A stretch of 53,017 nt of DNA from Candidatus Edwardsbacteria bacterium (GTDB lineage Bacteria > Edwardsbacteria > AC1 > JBFLXN01), in assembly GCA_040755715.1 (NCBI GenBank), contig JBFLXN010000001.1, positions 1 to 53,017 of the forward strand, in the 5' to 3' direction. The position numbers were made by a program, and so were the translations under genes. The notes under the pieces were generated by a model. The model searched no databases. It was not told the origin of the DNA and was given only the letters and a program-made list of their open reading frames with translations. Numbering within the stretch: the first letter of the stretch is position 1; every line of letters begins with the position of its first letter. Positions 30,779-52,259 of the stretch are shown here, one piece after another.

Positions 30779-32110
30779 TTAAACGTAGTCATTTATTGGC
30801 CCATACAGCCAGTAGAAGCCATTTGTCAGAACTGCATTGACATCATTCGCTGAATTAGCGATGCCATCGTCAACGAGTTTTTTGGCTATCTCTCCTGTCT
30901 TGAGAAGATATTCTCTGGCAAGCCTTGCTCCAAGTCCCCTTGCCGTCTTAAGATTAGCAAAATAACTTGAAAGTGCCTCCTCCTTCTTTGGCTCAGCGAT
31001 TAGTTTTTTCCAGGGATTGAATCCGCTTGGAAGATTTCCAATCTTTTTATCCAAATCTTCTTTTAACTTCCCTTCAATAGGAATGTATTCTCCTTTTTCC
31101 AGACTATAAACAGCCACTGGTCTGTTTTTTTCGTATTTCAAAAATCCATCCTTCTGCGAACCGTCCGGTCTCTGGCCTCCCAGAATCTTTCTTTCAACCA
31201 TCACATCAATTATTTCACTCTTGAGAGAACCATCTTTGAGATGTTTTTTCATAACTCTCAGGATGCACTGAAAGACATCTATTCCGACATAATCAATCAA
31301 TTGGAAGATACCCATTGGTCTGATGAGAAAATCCTGGCTCACCCGATTCATCACATAGACTGCTCCAGCAAAAGAATGCTTTTTCTGTAATCTTTTCACC
31401 TGTTTGATAGCATAAAGTCCATCCCTGATGAAATGTCCATTTCCGATAAATCCAGCTACATCGTTTGCCGAAACCAGGGTCTTTCTTAGCCTTTTACCAA
31501 GTTCAGTAGCAATATCTTTAAGTTCCTGAGGGGTCGTTTTGCCTGTGATTACCTCCACCAACCTTTGCACCACGGGCGGATTGTAGAAATGATATCCAAT
31601 TATCTTTCCCGAAAGTCCTGCTTTCTCATCAAGAAAACCAATGGGCACAGAAGAGGTGTTGGTGAAGAAAAATATCTCTTCACTGCACATATTTTTCAAT
31701 TCTTTGAATACTTTAATCTTCAGTTTCTCATCTTCAATAATTGCCTCAAAAATCATCTTTGAATTCTTTGCCAAATTCAAGTCCGTACCGAATCTTACCA
31801 CAGAAAATGCGTCTCTTGCAAAGGCATTCACTATTTCTTCATTTTCCACAAGATTTTTTTTATCTCTATATATATCTCTTAAGGAAACAATTCCTTTTTC
31901 TGCGGTCTTAGTAAGCTCACTTCTAAGATAGTTTTGGAGACCATCAAGTCCTTTCTCACTAATATCAATCAGATTCAGTCTATAAATCTTGTCTTTGTTC
32001 TTTAGTTTTAGCCCTGCTATTTCCTGGGCTAAAAGAACGGCAATACCGCTGCCCATCTTCCCAGCCGCTCCAATTACGGAGACATTTTCTAATCTTTCAT
32101 CAAGTGTCAT
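30779..32110 (-). CDS. 3-hydroxyacyl-CoA dehydrogenase family protein (long form)
   Basis: 443 aa. Has the VIGAAGKMGSGIA Rossmann motif and the GYHFYNPP 3HCDH motif. Confidence 0.8.
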   Translation of the reverse strand: MTLDERLENVSVIGAAGKMGSGIAVLLAQEIAGLKLKNKDKIYRLNLIDISEKGLDGLQNYLRSELTKTAEKGIVSLRDIYRDKKNLVENEEIVNAFARDAFSVVRFGTDLNLAKNSKMIFEAIIEDEKLKIKVFKELKNMCSEEIFFFTNTSSVPIGFLDEKAGLSGKIIGYHFYNPPVVQRLVEVITGKTTPQELKDIATELGKRLRKTLVSANDVAGFIGNGHFIRDGLYAIKQVKRLQKKHSFAGAVYVMNRVSQDFLIRPMGIFQLIDYVGIDVFQCILRVMKKHLKDGSLKSEIIDVMVERKILGGQRPDGSQKDGFLKYEKNRPVAVYSLEKGEYIPIEGKLKEDLDKKIGNLPSGFNPWKKLIAEPKKEEALSSYFANLKTARGLGARLAREYLLKTGEIAKKLVDDGIANSANDVNAVLTNGFYWLYGPINDYV

Positions 32111-32550
32111 TATGAACCTCCTTGTATATTTTGTAATCGTCGCCTTTTCTTTCTGTGGTTAATGATTGCTCCCTTTACGAAATCACGAATTTCCCCGGCC
32201 ATTTGCTGAGCCATTTCTGCTTCGTCTCTACTGATTTCTGTTGGCCAATGAACCGGATAACGGGTATCTACATAAAAATCTGTAAGAAATTCGCAGGCTT
32301 TCTTAAGTTTAGAAAACGATGATTGGTGAGCCTGACAAATTTTGAGCAATTCCGGGAGATCGTGAATCCTCCTGAAAGATAACTCGCAAGCAACGATATA
32401 AGTTTTCAGATACTTCTCAGCCGCTTGTTGAAAGTGAAAGCAAATCTGAGTGAAGAAAGTATTTGAATGATTGGCAAGATTTAGAGAAGCAAAGCAAAAA
32501 TCTTCCTCTGCTTTATTCAACCATTCTCTGATAATTTTCTCATCTACCAT
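32110..32550 (-). CDS. HEPN domain protein (HEPN/MNT module 1)
   Basis: 146 aa. AEEDF..A, then FHFQQAAEKYLK, then RIHDL, giving an Rx4-6H-like HEPN pattern. Overlaps the MNT gene. Its stop abuts the hbd-like start. Confidence 0.75.
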   Translation of the reverse strand: MVDEKIIREWLNKAEEDFCFASLNLANHSNTFFTQICFHFQQAAEKYLKTYIVACELSFRRIHDLPELLKICQAHQSSFSKLKKACEFLTDFYVDTRYPVHWPTEISRDEAEMAQQMAGEIRDFVKGAIINHRKKRRRLQNIQGGS

Positions 32551-32872
32551 ATACTACTTTTCCTTCTTTTAAGATAGCCAGAACGAATGGATCTCCCAGA
32601 CGGATTCGCTCTTCAAATTCTTCTGGTCTATAGATGAGAAAATCTGTTGGCAGATTTTTTTTTATCAATCTCCTCAATTCTCTCGCCCTGTCTCTACCAA
32701 TAGTCGGAGTTTCTCTCTTGATAATTAGGAAATCAACATCACTGTCTTCGCTAAGATTACCCTGTGCCGCAGAACCAAAGAGGATTATTCTTTCAGGCTT
32801 GTATTTCGTTACAATTTCTTTGATTATCCTTTTGATTTCCCTCATCAAATTTTGCTTTTGTAATACGGACAT
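32540..32872 (-). CDS. minimal nucleotidyltransferase (MNT) antitoxin-type protein
   Basis: 110 aa. ILFGSAAQGNLSEDSDVDFLI is the GS...D.D motif. Confidence 0.8.
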   Translation of the reverse strand: MSVLQKQNLMREIKRIIKEIVTKYKPERIILFGSAAQGNLSEDSDVDFLIIKRETPTIGRDRARELRRLIKKNLPTDFLIYRPEEFEERIRLGDPFVLAILKEGKVVYGR

Positions 32873-33765: not shown

Positions 33766-34134
33766 TCAAGCAGTTGTGAAACGACCGATGGATTTAATGT
33801 AATTGTTGAGTTTAACTTTCAGATTTATATAATCCTTAATAAACTTATCATATTCTTCTCCCGTGATATACTTACGCTTCAAGCTAAATAACATAAAGTG
33901 CTTCGTTTCTGTAAGAGAACCGCGTGCCTGACGACAAAACTGCTGGTTTTCTTTATAGTGAAACCGCCCATACCCTTCGGCAATATTTGCCCCTATTGAT
34001 GTACCCGCTCGTCTCAACTGGGAAACAACATTATATTTTTCTTCCTCAGGAAATCTCGAAGTAATATCATAAATCCGGTCTGCCAATTCTATTGATAATT
34101 TATACACCTCTAAGTCATCAAAATCCTTAATCAT
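33766..34134 (-). CDS. four-helix-bundle protein (23S rRNA intervening-sequence protein family)
   Basis: 122 aa. YKLSIELADRIY..T..FP.EEKY.VVSQLRRAGTSIGANIAEGYGR is the family signature. Confidence 0.8.
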   Translation of the reverse strand: MIKDFDDLEVYKLSIELADRIYDITSRFPEEEKYNVVSQLRRAGTSIGANIAEGYGRFHYKENQQFCRQARGSLTETKHFMLFSLKRKYITGEEYDKFIKDYINLKVKLNNYIKSIGRFTTA

Positions 34135-38062: not shown

Positions 38063-38533
38063 TCACGCTTCCCGCTTTTGGCATGGGGTGTCTTTGTTAA
38101 CTCTTTCTATCGTTTTCTTGTCTTCAATTAACTCTATTAAGACACCCAAGGTAGTTTCGGGTTTAAAGAAGACAACTCGTTTACCTTCACTACCCATCCG
38201 TGGTGTATCAATCGTTTGTATCCCATTTTGAGCTAACTGAGATAATACGGTATCTAAATTTTTTACTCCAAAACAAATATGGTGAAGTCCGGGGCCTCTC
38301 TTTCTAATAAATCGGGCAATGACACTATCTTCCTTTAATGATTCCAAAAGTTCAATCTTTATCCCTTTCAAATCAAAGAGAGCCAGACGAATTCCTCGCT
38401 CTGGCAATGTTACTATCTTATATTTCCCCAGGGTAAAGACTTCACCATAAAGTTTTGTAGCCATCTCTAAATTCTCTACCGCAATGCCGATATGGTCAAA
38501 TTTAGAAAACAACTTTTTCTTTGTACTCACCAA
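38063..38533 (-). CDS. mce: methylmalonyl-CoA epimerase (VOC family)
   Basis: 156 aa. [12 protein letters not shown]...[10 protein letters not shown] matches the epimerase pattern. Overlaps the mutase gene. The last codons run into TACGCTT-type words. Confidence 0.8.
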
Positions 38534-40061
38534 ATACCTCTTTTAGGATATCACAAATTTCGCCAATGGTGGCATAGCATTTTACTGCTTCAATTATTGG
38601 TAACATTAAATTTTCTTTACCCTTAGCCGTTCTTTTGAGATTTTCTAACGACTGTTTAACCTTGAGATTGTTTCGCCTTTGTTTCAATCGTTTCAGTCTG
38701 AGAATTTGTCTCTTTGCCACTTGGGGATTGACTTTTAGTATCTTAAAATGCTTTTCCTTCTCGGCTTCAATAAATTCATTAACTCCGACGATGATTTCTT
38801 TTTTTTCTTCAATTTTCTTTTGACACTCGTAAGCACTCTTCTGTATCTCCTTTTGATAAAAACCGGTTTCAATGGCTTTCAGAGCTCCACCCAGATTTTC
38901 AATCTCTTCTAAATATTTTTTTGCCTTCTCTTCCAGATGAGCTGTCAACCATTCTAGATAGTAGGAGCCACCCAGAGGGTCAATGGTCTCAGTAACTTTA
39001 GTCTCATAACCAATGATTTGTTGTGTGCGCAATGCCAATTTGACTGATTCTTCAGATGGAAGAGCTAGAGCTTCGTCTTTCGCATTAGTATGAAGTGATT
39101 GTGTCCCACCTAGAACAGCGGCTAAGGCCTGTAAGGTCACTCTCACAGCATTATTTTCAGATTGCTGGGCGGTGAGGGTGCATCCAGCGGTTTGAGTATG
39201 AAATCTCAACATCCAAGAGCGAGGATTTTGTGCTTCAAATTTTTCCTTCATTATTCTTGCCCACAATCTTCTGGCTGCTCTGAATTTGGCAATCTCTTCA
39301 AAGAGGTTATTGTGGGCATTAAAGAAGAAAGAAAGGCGTGGAGCAAAATCGTCTATGTTCAATCCAGCTTGCCTAGCGGACTGCACATAAGCAATAGCAT
39401 TGGCTAAGGTAAAAGCAATCTCCTGAACTGCAGTTGAGCCTGCCTCTCTGATGTGATAGCCACTGATAGAAATGGTATTCCATTTTGGTAGGTGTTTTCC
39501 GCAATAAGCAAAGATATCTGTAGTCAAACGCAGAGAAGGTTCTGGTGGAAATATATAAGTCCCCCGAGCGATATATTCTTTTAGAATATCATTCTGAATT
39601 GTGCCTTCAAGTGTCTCTGGTTTCACTCCTTGTTTTTCTGCCACGGCAACATACATTCCCAGCAGAACAGCAGCAGTAGCATTGATGGTCATTGAAGTAG
39701 AGACTTTATCCAAAAGAATTCCCTTAAAAAGTCTTTCCATATCTTCAAGTGAATCAATAGCCACGCCTGTCTTGCCAACTTCTCCTGAAGCCATTGGATG
39801 GTCAGAATTATAGCCCATCTGTGTTGGCAAATCAAATGCCACGGAAAGGCCGGTTTGCCCTTGTTGCAAAAGATATTTGTATCTGCGGTTAGATTCTTCA
39901 GCGGCAGCATATCCTGAGTATTGCCGCATCGTCCAGAGTTTACCCCGATACATCGTGGAATAGATGCCACGAGTAAAAGGATAATCCCCAGGAAAACCCA
40001 GGTCTCTTTGGTAATCTAGATCTCTTACATCATCGGGAAGATACAGAAGTTCCTTTTTCAT
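38502..40061 (-). CDS. acyl-CoA mutase large (catalytic TIM-barrel) subunit, MCM-type (Tyr/Arg)
   Basis: 519 aa. TMRQYSGY and [15 protein letters not shown] carry the Tyr89/Arg207 equivalents of P. shermanii MutB. No fused B12 domain. Confidence 0.85.
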
Positions 40062-40072
40062 AGTTTATGGAA

Positions 40073-40309
40073 TCAAAGAATATATTGCAGTCCGACACTT
40101 ATTGTTAGTCCTCGGAGCTTAATGCGATTTCCGTTTTCTCTTCTTAGAACACTACCTGATTTGAGTGGGAATCCATAAAAACACTGCCAGAAGCAAGGTA
40201 TAGGACCAAAAGGAGCAATTTCCATACCTAACAAGAGCCTTTTACCACTTTCGCTTGTCTGAGCTTCTATCGGCAACAAAGATAACGCTAAAGATAATAA
40301 AAGAAACAT
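40073..40309 (-). CDS. small secreted protein, unknown function
   Basis: 78 aa. Strong RBS (AGGAGGTG) and signal-peptide-like N-terminus MFLLLSLALSLLPIEA. No family recognised. Confidence 0.35.
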   Translation of the reverse strand: MFLLLSLALSLLPIEAQTSESGKRLLLGMEIAPFGPIPCFWQCFYGFPLKSGSVLRRENGNRIKLRGLTISVGLQYIL

Positions 40310-40324
40310 TGCTCTTCACCTCCT

Positions 40325-40840
40325 TCACTCCAATACCACCAACACATCCCCGCCATTTACTTTTGCACCTTGATGAACTATTATTTCTTTTACTACTCCT
40401 TCTTTGGGTGCCCGAATTTCATTTTGCATCTTCATTGCTTCTAAAATGACTACTCCTTTCCCCTTTTCTACCGTGTCCCCTGCTTTCACCTCTACAGCAA
40501 CAACCAAACCAGGCATTGGTGCCTTGACCGCTAAAACACCAGATTTATGCCTACCCATTTCCCTCTCCACCTTCTTAACCCTTTCATCTTCCACTCTCAC
40601 ATGATAGGTTTCATCTCTCATAGAGACATAGTATCCGTCTTCTTCTTTATCCACTTCAATATCATAAGATTCATTGGCAAGGAGCAAAGATAGATGTCCT
40701 GGTTTATTTACTACAGAAACACCGACTTCCTTTGGTTGTCCATCAATCAAAAGAGAATAAATATCTTCTCTTGATTCACTGTAGTGGTTTTCAATTTCAA
40801 TTCTATAAGTTTTATTTTGCACCGAAACAAGATAAGCCAT
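40325..40840 (-). CDS. biotin carboxyl carrier (BT-like N-domain plus biotinyl domain), REP-free paralog
   Basis: 171 aa. Has EAMKMQNEI. Same architecture as 13483-14031. Confidence 0.8.
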   Translation of the reverse strand: MAYLVSVQNKTYRIEIENHYSESREDIYSLLIDGQPKEVGVSVVNKPGHLSLLLANESYDIEVDKEEDGYYVSMRDETYHVRVEDERVKKVEREMGRHKSGVLAVKAPMPGLVVAVEVKAGDTVEKGKGVVILEAMKMQNEIRAPKEGVVKEIIVHQGAKVNGGDVLVVLE

Positions 40841-40860
40841 AGCGCCTCGCTACACTCGGC

Positions 40861-40995
40861 AGTAGTGAGTAGTAAGTAGAAAGTATTGAGTTAATTGAGT
40901 TTGTTGAGTTTTTGGGTTCATTGGGTTTTAACAACCCGATAAACTCAATAAACTGAGTAAACCCAATAAACCTATTTCTCCTCGTTACTATTTTA
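40861..40995. repeat. operon-spacer hairpin, words ATTGAGT / AGTAGTGAGT
   Basis: TATTGAGTTAATTGAGTTTGTTGAGTTTTTGGGTTCATTGGGTT faces AACCCGATAAACTCAATAAACTGAGTAAACCCAATAAACC. Outer arms are AGTAGTGAGTAGTAAG / CTCGTTACTAT. Confidence 0.65.
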
Positions 40996-41003
40996 TGTAT
41001 TGT

Positions 41004-42494
41004 TCACCTTCTCAGCATCATCCATCGGCTAACCTTTTTCCAATTGCTCATTGTTTCTTTACTTTCTTTTATAATTGGTGATTCTTCCTCTTTAAGTGCG
41101 ATGATTGCCGCCGCCATTGCCGCTATCTCTTCGTTTTGCTCTTTTGGTAGAGGCGTATCAAGTATCTTTTGCAAAAAACCTGTATCAAAATTGCCTCCTA
41201 AGAAGTCCCTATGGGAAAGAATCCGTTTGTGAAAGGGGATGGTAGTCTTTATTCCTTTTATTTTATATTCACTCAATGCCCTCTGCATTCGCACAATTGC
41301 TTCCTGCCTGTCCCTGCCCCAGGCAAGAACCTTGGCTATGAGTGGGTCATAGAAGAGTGGAATCTCATACCCTTCAAAGATTCCACTCTCCACTCTTATC
41401 CCAGGACCGGTAGGGTCTACAATTTCCTCAATCCTTCCGGTAGAAGGGAAGAAGTTATTGTCCGGATCTTCAGCAGAAATTCGGCATTCAATGGCAGCCC
41501 CACGGAGCCAGACCTCTTCCTGTTTTAGTCTGAGTTTTTCGCCACTGGCAATATGAATTTGTTCCTTTACAATATCTATTCCAGTAACCAATTCTGTGAC
41601 AGGATGTTCAACCTGAAGACGGGTATTGACCTCCAGAAAATAGAAGTTTTTATTTTTATCCACAAGAAATTCTACTGTTCCGGCATTTGTATATCCTGCG
41701 GTCTTTGCCACCTTCTTTGCAGACTCTCCCATCTTTCTTCTCAAATCTTCTGTCATAATACAGCAGGGAGATTCTTCTATCATCTTCTGATAGCGTCTCT
41801 GGATGGAACATTCTCTTTCATTGAGATGAACCACCTTACCGAAGTTATCAGCCAAGACTTGAATTTCCACATGTCTTGGATGGAGAAGATATTTCTCTAT
41901 ATATACTGCTGGATTTCCAAAGGCGGAGGAAGCTTCAGCAATTGCACCTTTAAGTGCGCTCTGCAGTCCACTTTTATTTTCCACCATGCGCATTCCCTTC
42001 CCCCCCCCACCGCCGGCTGCCTTTATGAGAATGGGAAATCCTATCTTTTCTGCTATTTTCTTTGCTTCTTCTTCATTTCTTAGAGGTTTTTCCATCCCGG
42101 GAATAATGGGAATGCCTGCCTTAGACATAGTCTGTCTCGCCGCTGTTTTATCCCCTAAGAGTGCCATGGCTTTACTGGTAGGACCGATAAACATTATTCC
42201 GGCACCCTCTACCGCTTTGGCAAAATTCTCGTTCTCTGCTAAAAATCCATATCCTGGGTGAATTGCTTCTGCCTTTGACTTCTTTGCTACATCAAGAATT
42301 TTGTCTATCCTGAGATAACTCTCGGTAGAAGGAGAAGGACCTATGAAATAGGCTTCATCAGCATATCTTGTATGAGGTGCACTCCTATCTGCTTCGGAAA
42401 AGACAGCGACAGAGAGAATATTCAGTTCCCTGCAGGCGCGCATCACCCGCAAGGCAATTTCCCCCCGATTAGCGATGAGAATTTTTTTAAACAT
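41004..42494 (-). CDS. biotin carboxylase subunit (propionyl-CoA carboxylase-type set)
   Basis: Preferred start is MFKKILIANRGEIA, with GGAGAAG 6 nt upstream. GGGGKGMR and the ATP-grasp pattern are present. Confidence 0.9.
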   Translation of the reverse strand: MFKKILIANRGEIALRVMRACRELNILSVAVFSEADRSAPHTRYADEAYFIGPSPSTESYLRIDKILDVAKKSKAEAIHPGYGFLAENENFAKAVEGAGIMFIGPTSKAMALLGDKTAARQTMSKAGIPIIPGMEKPLRNEEEAKKIAEKIGFPILIKAAGGGGGKGMRMVENKSGLQSALKGAIAEASSAFGNPAVYIEKYLLHPRHVEIQVLADNFGKVVHLNERECSIQRRYQKMIEESPCCIMTEDLRRKMGESAKKVAKTAGYTNAGTVEFLVDKNKNFYFLEVNTRLQVEHPVTELVTGIDIVKEQIHIASGEKLRLKQEEVWLRGAAIECRISAEDPDNNFFPSTGRIEEIVDPTGPGIRVESGIFEGYEIPLFYDPLIAKVLAWGRDRQEAIVRMQRALSEYKIKGIKTTIPFHKRILSHRDFLGGNFDTGFLQKILDTPLPKEQNEEIAAMAAAIIALKEEESPIIKESKETMSNWKKVSRWMMLRR

Positions 42495-42554
42495 AATTTT
42501 TTCTTCTCCACCTTTTTCCTCTCCCATCAAAGAGGAGGAGTTTTTGGTGTAAGA

Positions 42555-42920
42555 TTATTCTTTCTGGGCGAGGATAATCCCGTTTTCGTTAATCCTTTTG
42601 AAAAATGAATTTTCCCCTGCCTTTACAACTTCTTCAATGGTAAAAGGGAAAACATCAACAGGTAAACCGACAGAAAGAAAATAAAGCAGATATTGGGGTA
42701 TTCGGTCCATTCTTCTTCTCTTATCGTTGGCAAGAATAATTAATAAATCAATATCACTATGAGGCGAATAGTTGCTATTTGATAGAGAACCGAAAAGGAC
42801 AATCTTTAAAACATTTTTATCTTGGGAAATCAACTCTCGGGCAATCTTTGACAACTTAGTCAAAACCTCTTCTCTATTTAGGGAGTAAACTTTCACAGTA
42901 TTTGATAATTTCGCTTGCAT
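42555..42920 (-). CDS. minimal nucleotidyltransferase (HEPN/MNT module 2)
   Basis: 121 aa. VLFGSLSNSNYSPHSDIDLLI is the GS...D.D motif. Confidence 0.75.
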   Translation of the reverse strand: MQAKLSNTVKVYSLNREEVLTKLSKIARELISQDKNVLKIVLFGSLSNSNYSPHSDIDLLIILANDKRRRMDRIPQYLLYFLSVGLPVDVFPFTIEEVVKAGENSFFKRINENGIILAQKE

Positions 42921-43260
42921 TTTTTATCGCCTCCTCGGCATCGTTTTTAAAAAAATATTCTTTTGGTGTACCAGTTTCAAAACTATTTGCATACCTAGTG
43001 GGAATATAAAATCTATCCAATCTAGCGCCCTTTTCTATCAAATCTTCAGGCACATCTGTGGCGAGATTTTTTAAGAGACTACTTACCGAATGTCCCCAGG
43101 CTTCCATATTACGAAATAAATATAGGGCTTTTACTGCTTTTTCTGCCGATTGTTGCGCACTAAAGCATGCCCACTCATAAAACTTTTCTTCCGTATCCTT
43201 CTGTGCATGTGCTAAATCTCTTTTTGCTTGTTCTAACCAATCAACCCACCGGCTAGCCAT
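42874..43260 (-). CDS. HEPN domain protein (module 2)
   Basis: 128 aa. AKRDL..A, then FSAQQSAEKAVKALY, then GHS. The gene order is opposite to module 1. Confidence 0.75.
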   Translation of the reverse strand: MASRWVDWLEQAKRDLAHAQKDTEEKFYEWACFSAQQSAEKAVKALYLFRNMEAWGHSVSSLLKNLATDVPEDLIEKGARLDRFYIPTRYANSFETGTPKEYFFKNDAEEAIKNASEIIKYCESLLPK

Positions 43261-43358
43261 TTGCTTCTCCTCTTTCTGATAAACTCAAATAGCAGGTTCC
43301 TTCTATTCCCAGCCATAAAAGGCTGGGCTATTGATCTCTTCTATCCTTATTCTGCCGC

Positions 43359-44339
43359 TTAGTCAGTAGTGAGCCTGACATCCATTCTGTCTATCGTCCT
43401 GTTGGTGCCCTTGTAGACTATCTGCCAGCTTTTCTCTCCTACAATCTTCCGCTCAAACCGGTTGGCATTGGTGACCCTGACACCGCCATCCCATCTCCTA
43501 ACTGCTTCAACGGCGTTGGCGTCATTCGGATAACCCCGATAGTAGGAAACAGGCCCACCCAAACTCATATCAGCCATGATGTAGCGAACCCGAGCCTCAT
43601 CATAAGCTCGTGAAAGCTTTTCTTCTATCGCTTTAAGATATTTTTCTGCCTTTTCCCGATAGGAACTCTCTGGAGGCGCCATTTTGAGAACATTCTCAAA
43701 TTCTATCTTTGCCTCAGCATATTTTTTTAGCTCATAAAGCTGATAACCTTTTCCATAAATCTTCTTAATCTTTGAAGTGGGTGCAGATAGTGTTACTGCC
43801 ACCGTTTCCACTGGTGCAGGCAGCGGAGGCGGTGGTGCTACAGGAGCTGTCATTTCCTCTTCTTTCACCTCTTTTCCCACAATCTCTCCTGCAAGAGAAG
43901 AAAAAATGCCGAGAAGAGCATCCACTTCACCTTTATGCTCTCTCCTTGCCGTTTTCTCTACCTTCGCCGTGGCCACATCCACGAGGAGCAAGGTCACGGA
44001 ATATGTCTGTCCGACCTTACCTACATTTCCTCCAATCATTTTCCTTACTCCGAGTGCCTTACCAAACTTGGCAATACAACTTGCTTGGTCACAGGCACCT
44101 GTATGCTGAAGTGCCCATTCCTTCAAGACGCTCTCCCTCTTCTCGGTTGTAACTAATGTAAACCAGCTTCGTTCCTGAAGTTTGTCCAGTTCTGCAATTA
44201 GTCTGTAAGTCATTGTCTTCGCCTCATCCTCAGAAACTCCAGAAGCAGAAAGGTCCATGACAGAAAGAGTCGTCTTAGCAGTGCTTACTCCGAAACTTAA
44301 AATAAACAAAACTATGGGCAAAAGAAATTTCTTCAACAT
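43359..44339 (-). CDS. secreted CsgG/LpoB-like domain protein with Pro-rich linker and TPR-like C-terminal region
   Basis: 326 aa with a signal peptide. The N-domain pattern VMDL..SGVSEDEA......L...L......F.LV...KRESVLKEWALQHTGACDQASC...GKALGV.K.I.G.VGKVG is shared with 9487-11394 and 51615-52259. Confidence 0.55.
   Translation of the reverse strand: MLKKFLLPIVLFILSFGVSTAKTTLSVMDLSASGVSEDEAKTMTYRLIAELDKLQERSWFTLVTTEKRESVLKEWALQHTGACDQASCIAKFGKALGVRKMIGGNVGKVGQTYSVTLLLVDVATAKVEKTARREHKGEVDALLGIFSSLAGEIVGKEVKEEEMTAPVAPPPPLPAPVETVAVTLSAPTSKIKKIYGKGYQLYELKKYAEAKIEFENVLKMAPPESSYREKAEKYLKAIEEKLSRAYDEARVRYIMADMSLGGPVSYYRGYPNDANAVEAVRRWDGGVRVTNANRFERKIVGEKSWQIVYKGTNRTIDRMDVRLTTD
44086..44339. repeat. 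254-nt tract almost identical to 52006-52259
   Basis: I counted 4 mismatches in 254 nt, versus 9 in the adjacent 60 nt and about 17 in the next 60 nt. The identity ends at the start codon. Confidence 0.85.
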
Positions 44340-44354
44340 GGCTTGCCTCTTCTC

Positions 44355-44744
44355 TTAAATGGCAACCTGCCTTACTCTATACTTTGTTTCTGATATTATC
44401 ACCAAAGACCTGTTGTGTTCTATGTTTTTGAAACCTGGACTTCCTATGAACTCTCTCAGAATTTCAATTGCATGTTCCACTGTAGGGGGCTTGATTCTCA
44501 AGACCCATACACCGAAACTGCCCTTGCCTGAGCGATAATACAACTCTCCAAAATCCAAATCAAAGGTCAGAATGACAAACCCTTTCCCCTTGGCAATATC
44601 AACCACTTTTCTATCCGGCAGACCCACGGAAAACTCTGTAGTTCTTTTGGCATCAAATCCAACTTCCTTCAAAAAACTAATAATTTTAGGACTAATGTTT
44701 TCATTGCCTAAAATCTTGAGTTCAGACAAGGCCCACCTCTTCAT
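44355..44744 (-). CDS. DUF5615-like (Mut7-C/PIN-like) putative toxin
   Basis: 129 aa. Lies downstream of and overlaps a DUF433 gene. ILTFDLDFGEL is typical of this family as I recall it. Confidence 0.55.
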   Translation of the reverse strand: MKRWALSELKILGNENISPKIISFLKEVGFDAKRTTEFSVGLPDRKVVDIAKGKGFVILTFDLDFGELYYRSGKGSFGVWVLRIKPPTVEHAIEILREFIGSPGFKNIEHNRSLVIISETKYRVRQVAI

Positions 44745-44949
44745 ATTGAGTTACCTGAGAAGCATACCATATTGCCGCCAAAACATCCTCTCTCTGCAAT
44801 TCTGGATAGTCATCAATTATCTCTTCCGCTGAACAGCCGGATGACAAAAGTTCCAGTATCAAGTAAACCGGAATTCTTGTGCCACGAATTACAGGTTTAC
44901 CAAGCATAATATTTGGGTCAACTACTATTCTTTCATTGGGGGTTGACAT
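44722..44949 (-). CDS. DUF433 domain protein (putative antitoxin)
   Basis: 75 aa. IVVDPNIMLGKPVIRGTRIPV..ILE.L..G.S.EEI..DYP.L..EDV.AA is the DUF433 signature. Confidence 0.7.
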   Translation of the reverse strand: MSTPNERIVVDPNIMLGKPVIRGTRIPVYLILELLSSGCSAEEIIDDYPELQREDVLAAIWYASQVTQYEEVGLV

Positions 44950-44977
44950 ATTTTTTTCTCCTCTTTGTATTTAACAG

Positions 44978-45216
44978 GACTTTGTTAAAATTTTGTCTAA
45001 AATTGGCACGAAAATCAACACTGACAAGCGTTTAAGCCTTCTTGGCTTGTTCTTCTCTTGTCCCCCGACAAGTCGGGGGAAGAAAGACAGCCCAAGCCCC
45101 GATAAATCGGGGCTTCAGGGCGTCCTGAAAAGCACAAGAAAAGCGCATTCACAGGCTTATATTATTGTGCCAGAAGGCTTTCAGGCAGATTTTGAGCCAA
45201 AATTTAACAAAGCACT
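44978..45216 (-). mobile_element. MITE-like element, copy B (~239 nt, inverted relative to copy A)
   Basis: Reverse complement aligns end to end with 23277-23538. Same TIRs and internal palindromes. Confidence 0.75.
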
Positions 45217-45280
45217 GTTTAAGTTCCGTAGTCTCCTGCGAGTCTGCCTTAGGCAGACGATCCTGCGTTTCCTGCGTTTT

Positions 45281-46831
45281 TTACAGCGGTATGTTCCCAT
45301 GCTTTTTGGGTGGGTTTGTGTCTCTCTTGTTTTGTAGCATCTCCAAGGCATTGATTAGTTTTGGTCTTGTTTCACTGGGACGAATGATTTCATCTATGTA
45401 TCCACGAGAGGCTGTGATAAACGGATTAGCAAATTTGTCTACATATTCAGCCACTTTTTCAGCTCTTATTTTTGCCGAATCTTCTGCCTTAGCAATTTCC
45501 TCACGATACAAAATATTGACTGCACCCTCAGGACCCATCACCGCAATTTCCGCCGTGGGCCAAGCATAATTAATATCTGCACGAATATGTTTACTATTCA
45601 TTACGCAATACGCACCGCCGTAAGCTTTCCGGGTTATGACAGTCAATCGTGGCACTGTTGCCTCACAAAAGGCGAACATCAATTTTGCTCCCTGTTTAAT
45701 TACACCACTGTGTTCTTGAGCTACGCCTGGCAAAAAACCGGGCACATCTTCAAAGACAACCAACGGAATATTAAAACAATCACAAAATCTTACAAATCTC
45801 GCTCCCTTAACAGAAGAGAGAGTATCTAAAACGCCAGCTAAGACTGCGGGCTGATTTGCCACAAGGCCAACGCTTCTCCCATTGAGTCTGGCGAAGCCTA
45901 CAATCAGGTTTTCAGCAAAATGCTGGTGCACCTCTAAAAATTCACCGTTATCAACAACCCGATGAATTATCTCCTTCATATCGTAAGGTTTTATCGGACT
46001 ATCAGGAACTATTCTGTCTAATTCAGCATCCATACGATTTGGGTCATCCTTACATTCAACTACAGGTGGGTCCTCAAGATTGTTCTGAGGCAAATAGGTC
46101 AGTAATTCACGAATTCCCTTTAGACATTCCTCTTCTGTTTCTATAGCAAAATGAGCCACACCGCTCGTAGTGTTATGCACCATTGCGCCACCAAGTTGCT
46201 CAAAGGTAACCTCTTCATGTGTTACTGTTTTAATCACATCAGGTCCGGTAAGGAACATATAGGAGGTTCCCTGCACCATAAATACGAAATCTGTCAGTGC
46301 TGGCGAATACACCGCTCCTCCAGCACAAGGACCCATAATCGCTGAAATCTGGGGAACTACCCCAGAAGCCAAAACATTTCGCAAAAAAATATCTGAATAC
46401 CCTGCCAGGCTATCTACGCCTTCTTGAATTCTGGCACCTCCTGAATCTTTTAATCCAATAATGGGCGCACCATTCTTCATTGCCAAATCTTGAATCTTAC
46501 AAATCTTTTCTGCATAAGCCATACTTAAAGAGCCACCAAATACAGTAAAGTCCTCAGAAAGGACATAAGCCAGACGCCCATTGATTTGCCCATAGCCAGT
46601 GATTACTCCATCACCTAAGATTTTTTTCTTCTCCATCTCAAAATCAATACAGCGGTGAGTAACAAACATATCCATCTCTTTGAAACTACCCTTATCCAAA
46701 AGCAAATCAATCCTTTCCCGGGCGGTCAGTTTACCTCCTTCGTGTTGTCTTTTAATTCTCTCTTCTCCGCCGCCTAAAAGTGCCTCTTTCTTTAGTTTTT
46801 CTAAATGTTTCAATCTCTCTTCAATATTCAT
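45281..46831 (-). CDS. propionyl-CoA carboxylase beta / methylmalonyl-CoA carboxyltransferase-type subunit
   Basis: 516 aa. [30 protein letters not shown] and [16 protein letters not shown] motifs. Confidence 0.85.
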
Positions 46832-47646
46832 AATGGTTTCTCCAAATCTTTACTACACACTATTCCTATTTTGAGGTCGTGTTCAAAGATTAATAGCCAT
46901 TCTTCTTCCTTTGCTTTCTTAAGTAATTCCTTCTTTTTCCCCATTGTCACAAGCGGATAGAGGTCGTAGCCCATCACAAAAGGAATCTTCAGGTGTGAGG
47001 TTGTAGGAATTAAATCACCAAAGTATATAGCCGTCTTTTCTCCGTCCTGAATTAAAATACTCTGATGTCCCTCAGTATGTCCTCCGGTAACCAAAGTCTT
47101 TATCCCCGGCACTATCTCTATATCTCCCTCAATTAATTCTAATTGTTTAAACTCTAACAAGGGAAGAAAATTCTCTGCAAGATAACTTGCCTTTGTCCTC
47201 TCATTGGGTGAAATAGCGTCTTCCCATTCTTTTTTTTGAATAAAATACTTTGCTTTTGGAAATGTTGGCACAATTTTGCCGTCTTCTGTCCTTATGGTAT
47301 TCCCACCGCAGTGGTCAAAATGCAGATGTGTATTTATGACAATGTCAATATTGTTTGGCGACACTCCAATCTTTTTGAGTGAAGAAATTAGTGTATCTTT
47401 TTTGTCAATTCCATATATCTCGGCAATTTTTTTGCTGAACTTATCTCCTATCCCTGTATCAATCAATATTTTTTTGCCCTTTGTTTCAATCAAGAGACAG
47501 TTCAGTCCCAATTCAATTCTATTCTTTTCATCAGGTGTGCTAAGTCTCTCCCAGATAACCTTAGGGACGACGCCAAACATCGCCCCTCCATCAAGAGCAA
47601 ATTTTCCATCACTCAAAAGAAAAATTTCCATACTTCTGAATTTCAC
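46828..47646 (-). CDS. MBL-fold metallo-hydrolase
   Basis: 272 aa with [10 protein letters not shown] (HxHxDH). Has a 4-nt overlap with the PCC-beta start. Confidence 0.75.
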
Positions 47647-47678
47647 TTTTAATTTCCCTTCAAAGGCTTGCTAAAAAA

Positions 47679-47737
47679 AGTTCATAGTTCATGGTTCGTA
47701 GTTCATACCATCAACTATAAACTATGAACTATCAACT
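47679..47737. repeat. operon-spacer hairpin, word GTTCATA
   Basis: Arm 47679-47706 matches the reverse complement of 47710-47737 at 23 of 28 positions, with a 3-nt loop. The right arm overlaps the stop of the B12-subunit gene. Confidence 0.75.
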
Positions 47738-48133
47738 GTGTTTCTTCACTGTTTTCTGGATAAAGTTGACTATTTCCGTAGTGGGTGTACCTGGGCCAAA
47801 AAGTTGTTTCACCCCCATTTTTTTTAGCGCCCTTATGTCTTCCTCAGGAATTATCCCCCCCCCTGTAAGTGTAATTCCAGTTGCCTTCTTTTCTTTTAAG
47901 AGTTTAAGGATTTTAGGAAAGACTGTCATATGGGCACCAGAAAGGATGCTTACTCCTATTACCTCCACATCTTCTTGAATTGCTGTTTCTACAATCATTT
48001 CTGGTGTTTGATGCAGACCGGTATAAATAACTTCCATTCCTGCATCTCTCAGGGCCCTGGCTACGACTTTTGCTCCCCGGTCATGCCCATCAAGTCCAGG
48101 TTTAGCGATTAAAACACGAATCTTTCTCTCCAT
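47732..48133 (-). CDS. B12-binding small subunit of an acyl-CoA mutase
   Basis: 133 aa. [20 protein letters not shown] carries the DxHxxG base-off/His-on motif, and GGG.IP is present. Confidence 0.85.
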
Positions 48134-48159
48134 AATGCCTCCGATAGACGCTTCACGCC

Positions 48160-48555
48160 TTACGCTTCACGCTTCACGCTCGAGGCTTGACGTCTCTGGC
48201 GTTTAACACTAAGCGCATTTCTAAATTTTCTAGTTTTTGCTTCAATTTTATCACAAAATTCACAGATATCTTTAACTACAATGTTTTCAAGAAATCCCAG
48301 CCTCTCACATACTTTCATACAGGCAATTATTTCAACAAGTGACTTAAGAGAAATCCCAAGAAATCTTCTGAATTCGGCATCGCTGTCCGAAGCTCTTCCT
48401 TCTGCGATATTTAAAGATACAGAGACAGCGACTCTTTTGAGTTGACTTGACAAGCCAAATTTTTCATCTTCTGGGAGTTTTGCTGTAATTTTGTATATCT
48501 TTTCCACAAGATCCAATGACAATTGCCATATCTCTAATTTTTCAAAAGGATACAT
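48160..48555 (-). CDS. four-helix-bundle protein (23S rRNA intervening-sequence protein family)
   Basis: 131 aa. [44 protein letters not shown]. The C-terminal tail SSVKREA is encoded by ACGCTTC words. Confidence 0.8.
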
Positions 48556-48647
48556 TCAATCCTCCTTTTAGGCACGTTTTACGCCTTACGCTCGGTGCCT
48601 GGCGTTCAGCGTCAAGCGTCAGGCATTTAGCGTTTAGCGTCCAGCAT

Positions 48648-50297
48648 TCAAAAGACCGGTGGTTCTTTATATTCGCCAAAGACTTCTCTCAAGGCGTCAC
48701 AAATCTCACCAATGGTGGTATAACAACGAACGCATTCTAAGAATCTTGGCATTAGATTATCTTTGCTTTTGGCGGCTTTTTTTAATTGTTCCAGAGTCTT
48801 CTTCACTTTCAAGTTGTCTCTCTCCCGACGCACTTTATTTAAGTTTTTGATTTGTTCTTGCTCCACCCCAGGACCAATCTTCAAGAGTTCAATTTCCGGT
48901 TGTATTTCATCTGCGAATTCATTCACTCCCACCACAATTTTTTCTTTTTTCTCAAGTTCTTTTTGATAGCGGTAAGCACTGTCGGCAATTTCCTTCTGGA
49001 AGAATCCTTTCTCAATCGCCTTAATTACTCCACCTAAGATTTCAATCTTTTCAAAATATTTTTCTGCTTCTTCTACCATCCTGTTAGTTAATACTTCTAC
49101 ATAATATGAACCAGCAAGTGGGTCAATGGTATTGGCGACTCCAGTTTCGTAAGCAATAACCTGCTGGGTTCGCAAGGCAATTTTGGCTGCCTTTTCTGTT
49201 GGTAAAGCATAAGTTTCATCCATTGAATTAGTGTGCAGACTTTGTGTTCCACCCAAAACTGCTGATAAGGCTTCAAACGCGGTGCGCACAATATTATTTT
49301 CCGGCTGTTGAGCGGTAAGACTGCAACCCGCAGTTTGGGTATGAAATCTCAGAAGACAAGACCGTGGGTCTTTGGCTTTGTACTTTTCTTTCATCCTTTT
49401 AGCCCAGATGCGTCTGGCCGCTCTATATTTGGCTATTTCTTCAAAAAAATCTAAATGAGCATTAAAGAAGAAAGAAAGGCGTGGGGCAAATGTATCTACC
49501 TCCATACCAGCTCTTACCCCCGCCTCCACATAGGCAAATCCATTGGCTAAAGTAAAAGCCAGTTCCTGAACTGCTGTTGAACCGGCTTCACGAATGTGGT
49601 AACCACTGATGCTGATGGTATTCCATTTCGGCACATAATCGGCACTGAATTTCATAATATCAGTAATGATGCGCATTGAAGGTTCGGGAGGAAAAATCCA
49701 GGATTTCTGGGCTTGATACTCTTTTAATATATCATTTTGAATTGTGCCAGTGAGAAGCTTTGAGTCAACGCTCTGTTTTTCTCCCACCGCTATATACATC
49801 GCCAAAAGAATTCCTGCTGGGGCATTAATCGTCATAGAAGTAGAAATCTTATCCAATGGAATACCGTGGAATATTGTCTCCATATCCTTCAGAGAGTCAA
49901 CTGCTACTCCGCATCTTCCCACTTCACCTTTGGAAAGCGGATGGTCAGAATCTCTCCCATAAAGTGTAGGAAAATGAAAGGCGACCGAAAGTCCTGTCTG
50001 ACCGTGTTTGAGAAGAAATTTATATCTGGCATTTGTATCTTTGGGTGTACCGAATCCTGAAAATTGACGCATTGTCCACAACCGTCCACGATACATATTG
50101 TAATAGACACCACGAGTATAAGGATATTCTCCTGGAAAACCTATGTCTTTCAAATAATCTACGCCCACGACATCTTCTGGTGTATAAAGCACTCCTACTG
50201 GCTCTCCTGAAATAGTCGTAAATTTCCACGGTCTCTGTTTACCCTCTTCGGAGAGTTTTCTCTCCCATTCTTTTCTAAGTTTGTTTATCTCATCCAT
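48648..50297 (-). CDS. acyl-CoA mutase large subunit, ICM-type (Phe/Gln) with an atypical AFHFPT motif
   Basis: Preferred start is [11 protein letters not shown], with GAGGT upstream. TMRQFSGF and [15 protein letters not shown] carry the Phe80/Gln198-type substitutions. [15 protein letters not shown] replaces the usual AFD(L/M)PT..GYDSD. Confidence 0.8.
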
Positions 50298-50378
50298 ATT
50301 TTTTACCTCGCTAATAAATTTAAAAATCACATATTGCCATGTAAAATAAATAAGGGTTGTATTTGCCCAGACTGCGAA

Positions 50379-50505: not shown

Positions 50506-51492
50506 TTATCTTCTCCTCTTGGCTAAAAGGTTATCAACTATTTTGAATGGGTCAATTTCTTTCTTATATATCCGTTCCACTGCTTCATCCAAACGATTCT
50601 CTTTGAGAGTAAGATGTTCTCTAATTTTTTCTTCCAATATTGCCTTGAGTTGGGATTTAATCTGGCGTTTACGATTGACTTCAAAAAGCCCACTATTTGT
50701 TAAATATCTTCTGTGTGTAAGTATAGATTGTAGAAGTCCATCAATTCCTTTATCGTTAACTGCTTCAGTCATCAATATGGGATAGTCCCAGCCATTGTTT
50801 TTCTGGCGGAGTTCCGAAACAACCTTTAGTTCCTTAACCAAACCGTGTGCCCCTTGTCTATCAGCTTTATTAACCACAATAATATCAGCAATCTCTAATA
50901 ATCCAGCTTTCATCACTTGAATGCTATCTCCGGATTCTGGCACCAGAACCAGAACGGTAGTATCGCCAGCATCAGCGATATCCAGTTCAACCTGACCGAC
51001 ACCCACGGTTTCAATAATAACATAATCTATTCCGAAGGCCTCCATTAGCAAAGCTACCTCATTAGTTGCTCGGGCTAATCCTCCAAGACTCCCTCTGGTA
51101 GCCATACTTCTGATGAAGAGGCCTTCTTTACCAGTCAACTCCATCATCCGAATGCGGTCGCCTAAGATTGCCCCCCCCGAAAATGGACTGGTCGGGTCAA
51201 CCGCAATAATCCCAACTTTTTCTCCTTTAGCCAAAATTCTCTGGGCAAGTTTGTCAACCAGAGTGCTCTTTCCTGCTCCGGGGGGACCAGTAATTCCAAG
51301 ACGATAACTCTCTCTACTATGAGAGAAAATTTCTCTCAGGAGATGCTTATAACCATCAGAGCGATTTTCTACTTGAGAAATCGCCTTGGCTAAAGCAACT
51401 TTGTCACCTTTGAGGAGACCCTTTACTAAGTGTAGGGGCGTGGCAACCCCGCTACCACGGTTTGATATTTTGGGGATTTTCTTCAATGGCAT
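50506..51492 (-). CDS. meaB: MeaB/ArgK-type G-protein chaperone of B12 mutases
   Basis: 328 aa. GITGPPGAGKSTL (P-loop), IIETVGVGQ and VVNKAD motifs. Confidence 0.85.
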   Translation of the reverse strand: MPLKKIPKISNRGSGVATPLHLVKGLLKGDKVALAKAISQVENRSDGYKHLLREIFSHSRESYRLGITGPPGAGKSTLVDKLAQRILAKGEKVGIIAVDPTSPFSGGAILGDRIRMMELTGKEGLFIRSMATRGSLGGLARATNEVALLMEAFGIDYVIIETVGVGQVELDIADAGDTTVLVLVPESGDSIQVMKAGLLEIADIIVVNKADRQGAHGLVKELKVVSELRQKNNGWDYPILMTEAVNDKGIDGLLQSILTHRRYLTNSGLFEVNRKRQIKSQLKAILEEKIREHLTLKENRLDEAVERIYKKEIDPFKIVDNLLAKRRR

Positions 51493-51614: not shown

Positions 51615-52259
51615 CTAAATAAAGGGATGATTTCGCAGATTTAATTTACCCAGCATTATGGAGAAGACGCTACCCGAAAGCCGGAGTCCGAGCGCTTGTA
51701 AGAAGCCGAATCCCAGCTCCGACTCGCCGTCTTTTTCATTCTTATACTCTTCATAGCTTTGATTATTTTTACCAAGATAGGTTATTCCTTCTTTCCCAAC
51801 AATTTCTGCGGCAATAGAAGAAAAAATGCCCAAAAGTCCATCTATCTCACCTTTATAGTCTCGGACAGCAGTCTTCTCCACTTTGACAGTGGCAACATTC
51901 ACTAACATTAAAGTAACAGCATATGTCTGTCCAACTTTTCCCACATTCCCTCCAATTATCTTTCTCACTCCAAGTGCCTTTCCAAATTTGGCAATGCAAC
52001 TCGCCTGGTCACAGGCACCTGTATGCTGAAGTGCCCATTCCTTCAAGACGCTCTCCCTCTTCTCGGTTGTAACTAATGTAAACCAGCTTCGTTCCTGAAG
52101 TTTGTCCAGTTCTGCAATTAGTCTGTAAGTCATTGTCTTCACCTCATCCTCAGAAACTCCAGAAGCAGAAAGGTCCATTACAAAAAGAGTCGTCTTAGCA
52201 GTGCTTACTCCGAAACTTAAAATAAGCAAAACTATGGGCAAAAGAAATTTCTTCAACAT
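51615..52259 (-). CDS. secreted CsgG/LpoB-like domain protein, paralog of 43359-44339 with a different C-terminus
   Basis: 214 aa. The first ~155 aa align with the paralog. AGGAGG RBS. Confidence 0.55.
   Translation of the reverse strand: MLKKFLLPIVLLILSFGVSTAKTTLFVMDLSASGVSEDEVKTMTYRLIAELDKLQERSWFTLVTTEKRESVLKEWALQHTGACDQASCIAKFGKALGVRKIIGGNVGKVGQTYAVTLMLVNVATVKVEKTAVRDYKGEIDGLLGIFSSIAAEIVGKEGITYLGKNNQSYEEYKNEKDGESELGFGFLQALGLRLSGSVFSIMLGKLNLRNHPFI

Follow-up and report, generated by a model that had tools for sequence, protein, structure and literature searches.

Two split acyl-CoA mutases, predicted to be of isobutyryl-CoA and methylmalonyl-CoA mutase type, in a conserved gene array with a single B12-binding subunit

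Why would one gene array encode two split adenosylcobalamin-dependent acyl-CoA mutase large subunits with different specificity residues, and only one B12-binding small subunit? The question is raised by the window analysed here, which is the whole 53-kb contig JBFLXN010000001.1 (53,017 nucleotides) of a Candidatus Edwardsbacteria bacterium, from a groundwater metagenome. Phe and Gln at the two sites where methylmalonyl-CoA mutase (MCM) has Tyr and Arg are the signature of isobutyryl-CoA mutase (ICM), and the window holds one large subunit of each kind. We consider it likely that these are an ICM-type and an MCM-type split mutase operating in an array for amino-acid and acyl-CoA catabolism. 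The argument turns on four genes:

50506..51492, minus strand: MeaB-type G-protein chaperone (TIGR00750, 331.4 bits against a cut-off of 240.75)
48648..50297, minus strand: ICM-type (Phe79/Gln197) acyl-CoA mutase large subunit, 549 residues (TIGR00641, structure alignments and AlphaFold2 model)
47732..48133, minus strand: B12-binding small subunit with a DGHDRG (DxHxxG) motif (TIGR00640, 177.6 bits)
38502..40061, minus strand: MCM-type (Tyr48/Arg166) acyl-CoA mutase large subunit, 519 residues (TIGR00641 and structure alignments)

With TIGR00641, which models the N-terminal domain of acyl-CoA mutases and has a cut-off of 303.8 bits, the two large-subunit open reading frames (ORFs) score 810.6 and 781.6 bits. 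When aligned to solved structures with HMMER, MCM Tyr89 and Arg207 correspond to Tyr48 and Arg166 of ORF 38502-40061 (here the Tyr/Arg protein) and to Phe79 and Gln197 of ORF 48648-50297 (the Phe/Gln protein). A 151-sequence MAFFT alignment anchored on P. shermanii MutB gave the same residues for both. These are the assignments made in an earlier note on this DNA, which was written from the letters alone, and no alignment placed other residues at either position, the outcome on which the note had staked its case beforehand. In the Phe/Gln gene, the codons for Phe79, His108 and Gln197 lie at 50061-50063, 49974-49976 and 49707-49709. The end given in the note for this gene, 50330, proved to be a GTG extension in the same frame; the start is the ATG at 50297, with a GAGGT ribosome-binding site, and relatives of the protein are 543–549 residues long. 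PMC7238569 attributes the two specificity sites to Jost et al. 2015 and names Tyr/Arg as the pair that marks MCM, without giving a Phe/Gln counterpart.

Both large subunits stop at the end of the MutB barrel and linker, at around residue 560 of 727, and therefore neither carries a fused B12 domain, in agreement with the note. Both proteins share with P. shermanii MutB the conserved residues that are, in MCM numbering, Tyr243, His244, Gln197, Arg283, Gln330, Asn366 and Glu370, among others. Of 37 positions compared in the barrel and at the CoA, substrate and adenosine sites, only 89, 118, 119, 122, 123, 125, 126, 139 and 207 differ between the two. We considered whether either large subunit might be an inactive, MutA-like partner, and this was ruled out because both keep all of the catalytic residues.

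The Tyr/Arg protein retains the complete MCM pocket and falls among the split MCMs of the archaeal/Firmicute type, being 70–72% identical to those of Desulfofundulus (D. kuznetsovii) and Caldanaerobacter and 63% identical to that of Ilyobacter (I. polytropus). As in the split MCM operons, epimerase and carboxyltransferase genes accompany it, here together with genes for biotin carboxyl carrier protein (BCCP) and biotin carboxylase, which supplies the expected pathway context. An ordinary MCM role is predicted from these features, in which the enzyme would act with propionyl-CoA carboxylase and the epimerase to convert propionyl-CoA to succinyl-CoA. The note had left the choice between MCM and ethylmalonyl-CoA mutase (ECM) open. 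The pocket and the clustering favour the former, while the latter was rejected for both window proteins: identity to the ECM-type MeaA of Ruegeria is 38–40%, neither protein clusters with MeaA types, and the Tyr/Arg protein groups with split MCMs with a support of 0.92.

The Tyr/Arg protein has one peculiarity, Asn85 (codon AAT, 39807-39809), which turns its GYDSD motif into GYNSD and is found in one of 120 homologues; Asp occupies this position in all 119 other close homologues and in nearly all family representatives. Assembly error was ruled out as its cause because an independent Logan contig of the source run (depth ∼27) matches the window base for base. This substitution in an otherwise invariant motif, together with the lack of an adjoining small subunit gene, could be taken to mean that the MCM-type copy is impaired or decaying, leaving the ICM-type enzyme as the only one that works with the single small subunit. 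We regard this as very improbable: the reading frame is intact, the checked catalytic, CoA and adenosine positions are all conserved, the gene lies between propionyl-CoA carboxylase and epimerase genes that are themselves intact, and relatives with the same layout keep GYDSD.

For the Phe/Gln protein, an AlphaFold2 model with a predicted local distance difference test (pLDDT) score of 92.3 found its best match in the Protein Data Bank (PDB) in HcmA (PDB ID: 4r3u), with a template modelling (TM) score of 0.96–0.97. HcmA belongs to the 2-hydroxyisobutyryl-CoA mutase (HCM) HcmAB of Aquincola tertiaricarbonis, the Xaut_5021 type, which shares the split architecture of the window enzymes and is the best solved-structure match for both large subunits (E-values of ∼1e-172 to 1e-176) and for the small subunit (HcmB, 8.9e-46). 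Sequence identity of the Phe/Gln protein is 63% to its Tyr/Arg neighbour in the window, 58% to the Ilyobacter split MCM, 52% to HCM-type Xaut_5021, 46% to P. shermanii MutB, 38% to both the pivalyl-CoA mutase (PCM)-type Xaut_5043 and Ruegeria MeaA, and 33–34% to IcmF.

The defining residues distinguish between these families. HCM has Ile89 and Asp116 (HcmA Ile90 and Asp117), whereas the window proteins have Phe or Tyr at 89 and Ala at 116, and HCM identity was rejected for both; no gene for a 2-hydroxyisobutyric acid (2-HIBA)-CoA ligase lies near the window mutases. PCM was represented by Xaut_5043/5044 of Xanthobacter autotrophicus Py2, reportedly the pivalyl-CoA mutase genes characterised by Kitanishi et al. 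2015. This system resembles the window in being a split mutase with a MeaB neighbour, but its pocket is remodelled (SLLPCCSG, with Leu89, Leu116-Pro-Cys-Cys and thus Cys118, Asn207 and Gln243) and none of these features occurs in the window protein, so PCM identity was also rejected. What the Phe/Gln protein does have are the features of ICM, as known from IcmA/IcmB of Streptomyces cinnamonensis and the fused IcmF (PDB IDs: 4xc6 and 5cjt-5cjw): Phe and Gln at MCM positions 89 and 207, a DxHxxG B12 unit, here as a separate small subunit, and a MeaB-type G-protein. The IcmA residues are Phe80 and Gln198, one residue off from Phe79 and Gln197 of the window. Because the ICM residues are present and the HCM and PCM residues absent, we assign the protein as an ICM-type, predicted butyryl-CoA/isobutyryl-CoA mutase, which would pair with the small subunit encoded at 47732-48133 and be loaded and protected by MeaB (50506-51492).

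A FastTree phylogeny of 163 sequences placed the Phe/Gln clade and the split Tyr/Arg MCMs in an 83-leaf group (support 0.975) with HCM and PCM outside; the sister relation inside this group is weakly supported (0.15). The Phe/Gln clade is a close paralogue of the split MCMs and probably arose from them when the two carboxylate-binding residues were lost, and its pocket may have originated independently of the Streptomyces and IcmF enzymes. Differences from IcmF are clear: IcmF is fused, whereas the window large subunit is unfused and its clade groups with split MCMs, and the score of the Phe/Gln protein with the IcmF equivalog model NF045497 is 374 bits against a cut-off of 1500.

Several points weigh against the ICM assignment and the catabolic role built on it. 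The tree was made without Streptomyces IcmA; in a search for it, the Streptomyces matches that we inspected, from plasmid records, were all of the Tyr/Arg type. IcmF, the only solved ICM, is as distant as the identity given above implies, we found no assayed member of the Phe/Gln clade, and we saw no acyl-CoA dehydrogenase or electron-transfer flavoprotein (ETF) gene for butyryl-CoA oxidation in the contig. If the assignment is right, the methylmalonyl-CoA mutase annotation now given to the clade, whose members occur in many uncultured phyla of bacteria and archaea, would need correcting, as it masks a route by which anaerobic and subsurface microbes are likely to turn valine or isobutyrate into butyryl-CoA.

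The feature that had set the Phe/Gln protein apart in the note was an atypical active-site motif, AFHFPT...GRDSD, and this is indeed present. Its His (His108) corresponds to MCM Asp118, the following Phe to Leu119 and the Arg to Tyr125. The unusual conservation attributed to Asp118 is also real: this position is Asp in almost all of ∼150 representatives of 50%-identity clusters, whatever residues occupy 89 and 207, the exceptions being the pivalyl-CoA mutase type (Xaut_5043 and one relative, in which the segment is remodelled), one degenerate sequence, and the clade of the window protein. Within that clade, however, the residue is polymorphic. The 121 closest Phe/Gln homologues, all at least 72% identical, comprise 67 with Asp and 54 (∼45%) with His, and a tree of these homologues shows about five Asp/His switches with Asp ancestral. 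No second site covaries with Asp/His among them, where only phylogenetic signal was detected. Among the Phe/Gln proteins of species-representative genomes, 58 have Asp, 17 have His (about a fifth) and four have Ser. Those with His belong to WOR-3, Eisenbacteria, Thor- and Promethearchaeota (Asgard) and unclassified metagenome-assembled genomes (MAGs), the residues around the His vary, and the His- and Asp-bearing proteins share the same operon context. On the Tyr/Arg side, Asp is kept in 13 of 13 proteins from species-representative loci and in all 119 other close homologues, with His absent from all 132 of these relatives.

The second half of the motif is less informative. Other Phe/Gln representatives have Cys, Tyr, Asp, Lys, Arg or Leu at position 125, and because this position varies so freely GRDSD is not distinctive. 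In the structural model, residues 102–107 form a strand with His108 directly after it, from which we infer, on barrel geometry, that His108 lies where barrel strand 2 ends on the cofactor side. The HcmA specificity residue, Asp117, corresponds not to this His but to the Ala of 'SVA' two residues before it. A literature search on Asp139, the human equivalent of Asp118, returned nothing relevant.

Since close orthologues with the same operon surroundings may have either Asp or His, and since the rest of the pocket resembles that of MCM and ICM, the His is most likely a recurrent variant at a site that is less constrained once the carboxylate-binding Tyr/Arg pair has been replaced; it would be a variant at a loosened site and not a specificity switch. 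Set against this is the idea that the His tunes the pocket for a substrate other than that of classical ICM, with isovaleryl- or pivalyl-CoA, valeryl- or 2-methylbutyryl-CoA, or a hydroxylated acyl-CoA as candidates. An effect on the pocket is conceivable because Asp118 is otherwise nearly invariant and is also lost from the pivalyl-CoA mutase large subunit, the main exception outside the clade. The modelled position of His108, directly after strand β2 and two residues past the site at which HCM binds the hydroxyl of its substrate, would fit such tuning, as would the leucine-pathway genes in the same contig. Yet about five switches have taken place among orthologues of at least 72% identity with unchanged operon partners and no covarying site, and the other pocket positions are those of MCM and ICM, rather than of PCM (Leu89, Leu116, Pro117, Asn207 and Gln243) or HCM (Ile89 and Asp116). 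We therefore consider a His-tuned substrate improbable. The note's suggestion that the motif marks a different substrate loses its footing with the Asp/His polymorphism and the variability of position 125, and the isovaleryl/pivalyl rearrangement that it floated finds no support in the sequence, as the pocket is unlike that of Xaut_5043. The Phe/Gln proteins also show that a near-invariant Asp of this family can give way to His or Ser where the carboxylate-binding pair has been lost.

A further subgroup of Phe/Gln proteins, from Asgard and uncultured archaeal MAGs (loci L070, L079, L080 and L081), reads SVAFSLHTIYG(Y/I)EA(D/E/I). These proteins have Ser at the Asp118 equivalent, His for the Pro two residues on, and an altered DSD, and so depart further from the family pattern than the window motif does.

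How the two large subunits obtain their cofactor is addressed by the gene content and its order. We scanned the whole contig in six frames with phmmer (E ≤ 1), using five different small subunits and MeaB as queries, and found one B12-binding ORF (47732-48133) and one MeaB ORF (50506-51492), both beside the ICM-type gene as the note had reported. The Tyr/Arg gene has no fused B12 domain and no adjoining small subunit gene; the sole copy in the contig lies 7.7 kb upstream. In addition to the four genes given above, the region contains the following:

48160..48555, minus strand: four-helix-bundle gene of the 23S rRNA intervening sequence (IVS) protein family (TIGR02436, 100.4 bits)
46828..47647, minus strand: metallo-beta-lactamase (MBL)-fold hydrolase (partial YtnP-family match, 239 bits, under the cut-off)
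45281..46831, minus strand: acyl-CoA carboxylase carboxyltransferase subunit, propionyl-CoA carboxylase beta type (TIGR01117, 823 bits, at subfamily level and under the equivalog cut-off)
41004..42530, minus strand: biotin carboxylase subunit (NF006367, 669.6 bits against a cut-off of 597)
40325..40840, minus strand: biotin carboxyl carrier protein (biotinyl-domain matches)
38063..38533, minus strand: methylmalonyl-CoA epimerase (TIGR03081, 122.1 bits against a cut-off of 114.95), overlapping the 3′ end and stop of the MCM-type mutase gene

The order meaB, Phe/Gln large subunit, small subunit, MBL hydrolase, carboxyltransferase, biotin carboxylase, (BCCP), Tyr/Arg large subunit and epimerase is kept in at least 10 loci from at least three phyla: the window, the WOR-3-like loci L009 and L010, Zixibacteria (L023, L033, L072 and L074) and Ignavibacteriaceae (L031, L042 and L059). 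Within the stretch of contig available for each locus there is one small subunit and no more than one MeaB, so that the single-copy layout described in the note recurs across at least 10 genomes, and the Phe/Gln enzyme, although of a known type, sits in a conserved gene order. In operons with only a Tyr/Arg large subunit, by comparison, the small subunit adjoins the Tyr/Arg gene (Ilyobacter, D. kuznetsovii, Caldanaerobacter, two Streptomyces plasmids and a Bdellovibrionales MAG), whereas in the window it follows the Phe/Gln gene and the slot directly after the Tyr/Arg gene is empty. The window small subunit is 60–65% identical to the partners of Tyr/Arg enzymes (65% to that of the Ilyobacter MCM operon), 57% to the HCM partner and 48% to the PCM partner.

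Given this synteny, it is a reasonable inference that the small subunit is shared, and the MCM-type subunit probably relies on the small subunit and MeaB that serve its ICM-type neighbour. We know of no biochemical demonstration of one small subunit and chaperone serving both enzymes. A less probable arrangement, though one that deserves serious weight, is that the MCM-type subunit pairs with a second B12-binding subunit encoded outside the contig. Our scan covered the 53-kb contig only, and distant partners do occur, the ICM subunit genes of Streptomyces being unlinked. The small-subunit tree, which is poorly resolved for these 130-residue proteins, also speaks against sharing, as it places the window subunit, like those of other operons with two large subunits, with the Phe/Gln-linked subunits and not with those of the Tyr/Arg-only operons. 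On the other side, the combination of two large subunits with one small subunit and one MeaB per array is maintained in ten loci spread over at least three phyla, the gene that is absent here is precisely the one that lies directly downstream of the Tyr/Arg gene in the nearest Tyr/Arg-only operons, and the window subunit retains the identity to Tyr/Arg partners noted above. Three Bathyarchaeia-type loci (L075, L089 and L091) show a different layout, in which a Tyr/Arg subunit and MeaB are divergent from the Phe/Gln subunit; the visible part of these contigs contains no gene for a B12 small subunit.

Extending the idea of a shared subunit, we tentatively propose, at somewhat short of even confidence, that the single small subunit and MeaB form a shared cofactor module for the ICM- and MCM-type barrels, with all of the genes in a single operon that is kept in WOR-3-like bacteria, Zixibacteria and Ignavibacteria. 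Scarce cofactor would be split within the cell between valine- and propionate-derived carbon as the two barrels compete for the one small subunit, and the change from Asp118 to His, seen in the Phe/Gln lineage only, would reflect release from the carboxylate-binding constraint. If true, the sharing of small subunit and chaperone would be an instance of modular use of B12 cofactor machinery.

The surroundings of the two mutases are consistent with a catabolic role. The genes of the contig, whose closest relatives are candidate division WOR-3 MAGs (81–82% identity for the Phe/Gln mutase), lie nearly all on the minus strand and form a co-directional array for amino-acid and acyl-CoA catabolism. 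It includes genes for a 2-oxoacid:ferredoxin oxidoreductase, a branched-chain aminotransferase, a phosphate butyryltransferase and a butyrate-kinase-like protein; a methylcrotonyl-CoA-carboxylase-like set, and a thiolase with a 3-hydroxy-3-methylglutaryl (HMG)-CoA-synthase-like gene; one or more further thiolases, a 3-hydroxyacyl-CoA dehydrogenase, a crotonase and a CoA-transferase; and alanine dehydrogenase and a methionine-gamma-lyase-family enzyme, followed by the two-mutase region. This region would be part of a long array that degrades amino-acid-derived acyl-CoA esters with two active split-type mutases. Of the two, the Phe/Gln enzyme would tie valine-derived isobutyryl-CoA to butyryl-CoA, with the predicted flux running on to the crotonase, 3-hydroxyacyl-CoA dehydrogenase and thiolases of the contig.

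Other genes interrupt or accompany this array. The MBL-fold hydrolase gene, 3′ of the small subunit and 5′ of the carboxyltransferase, occupies a slot that is kept in ∼20 related loci from several phyla; a function as acyl-CoA thioesterase or cofactor handler is a guess only. The IVS-family gene at 48160-48555 separates the large and small subunit genes, which in the WOR-3 relatives are 18–47 nucleotides apart with no insert, and genes of this family occur at other junctions of the same operon type (L009 9673-9993 and L010 13972-14340) and elsewhere in the window (33766-34134). Judged from their translations, two pairs of small HEPN/nucleotidyltransferase-like genes (42555-43260 and 32110-32872) break up the metabolic array, as do a PIN-like gene (44355-44744) and a pair of lipoprotein paralogues (43359-44339 and 51615-52259).

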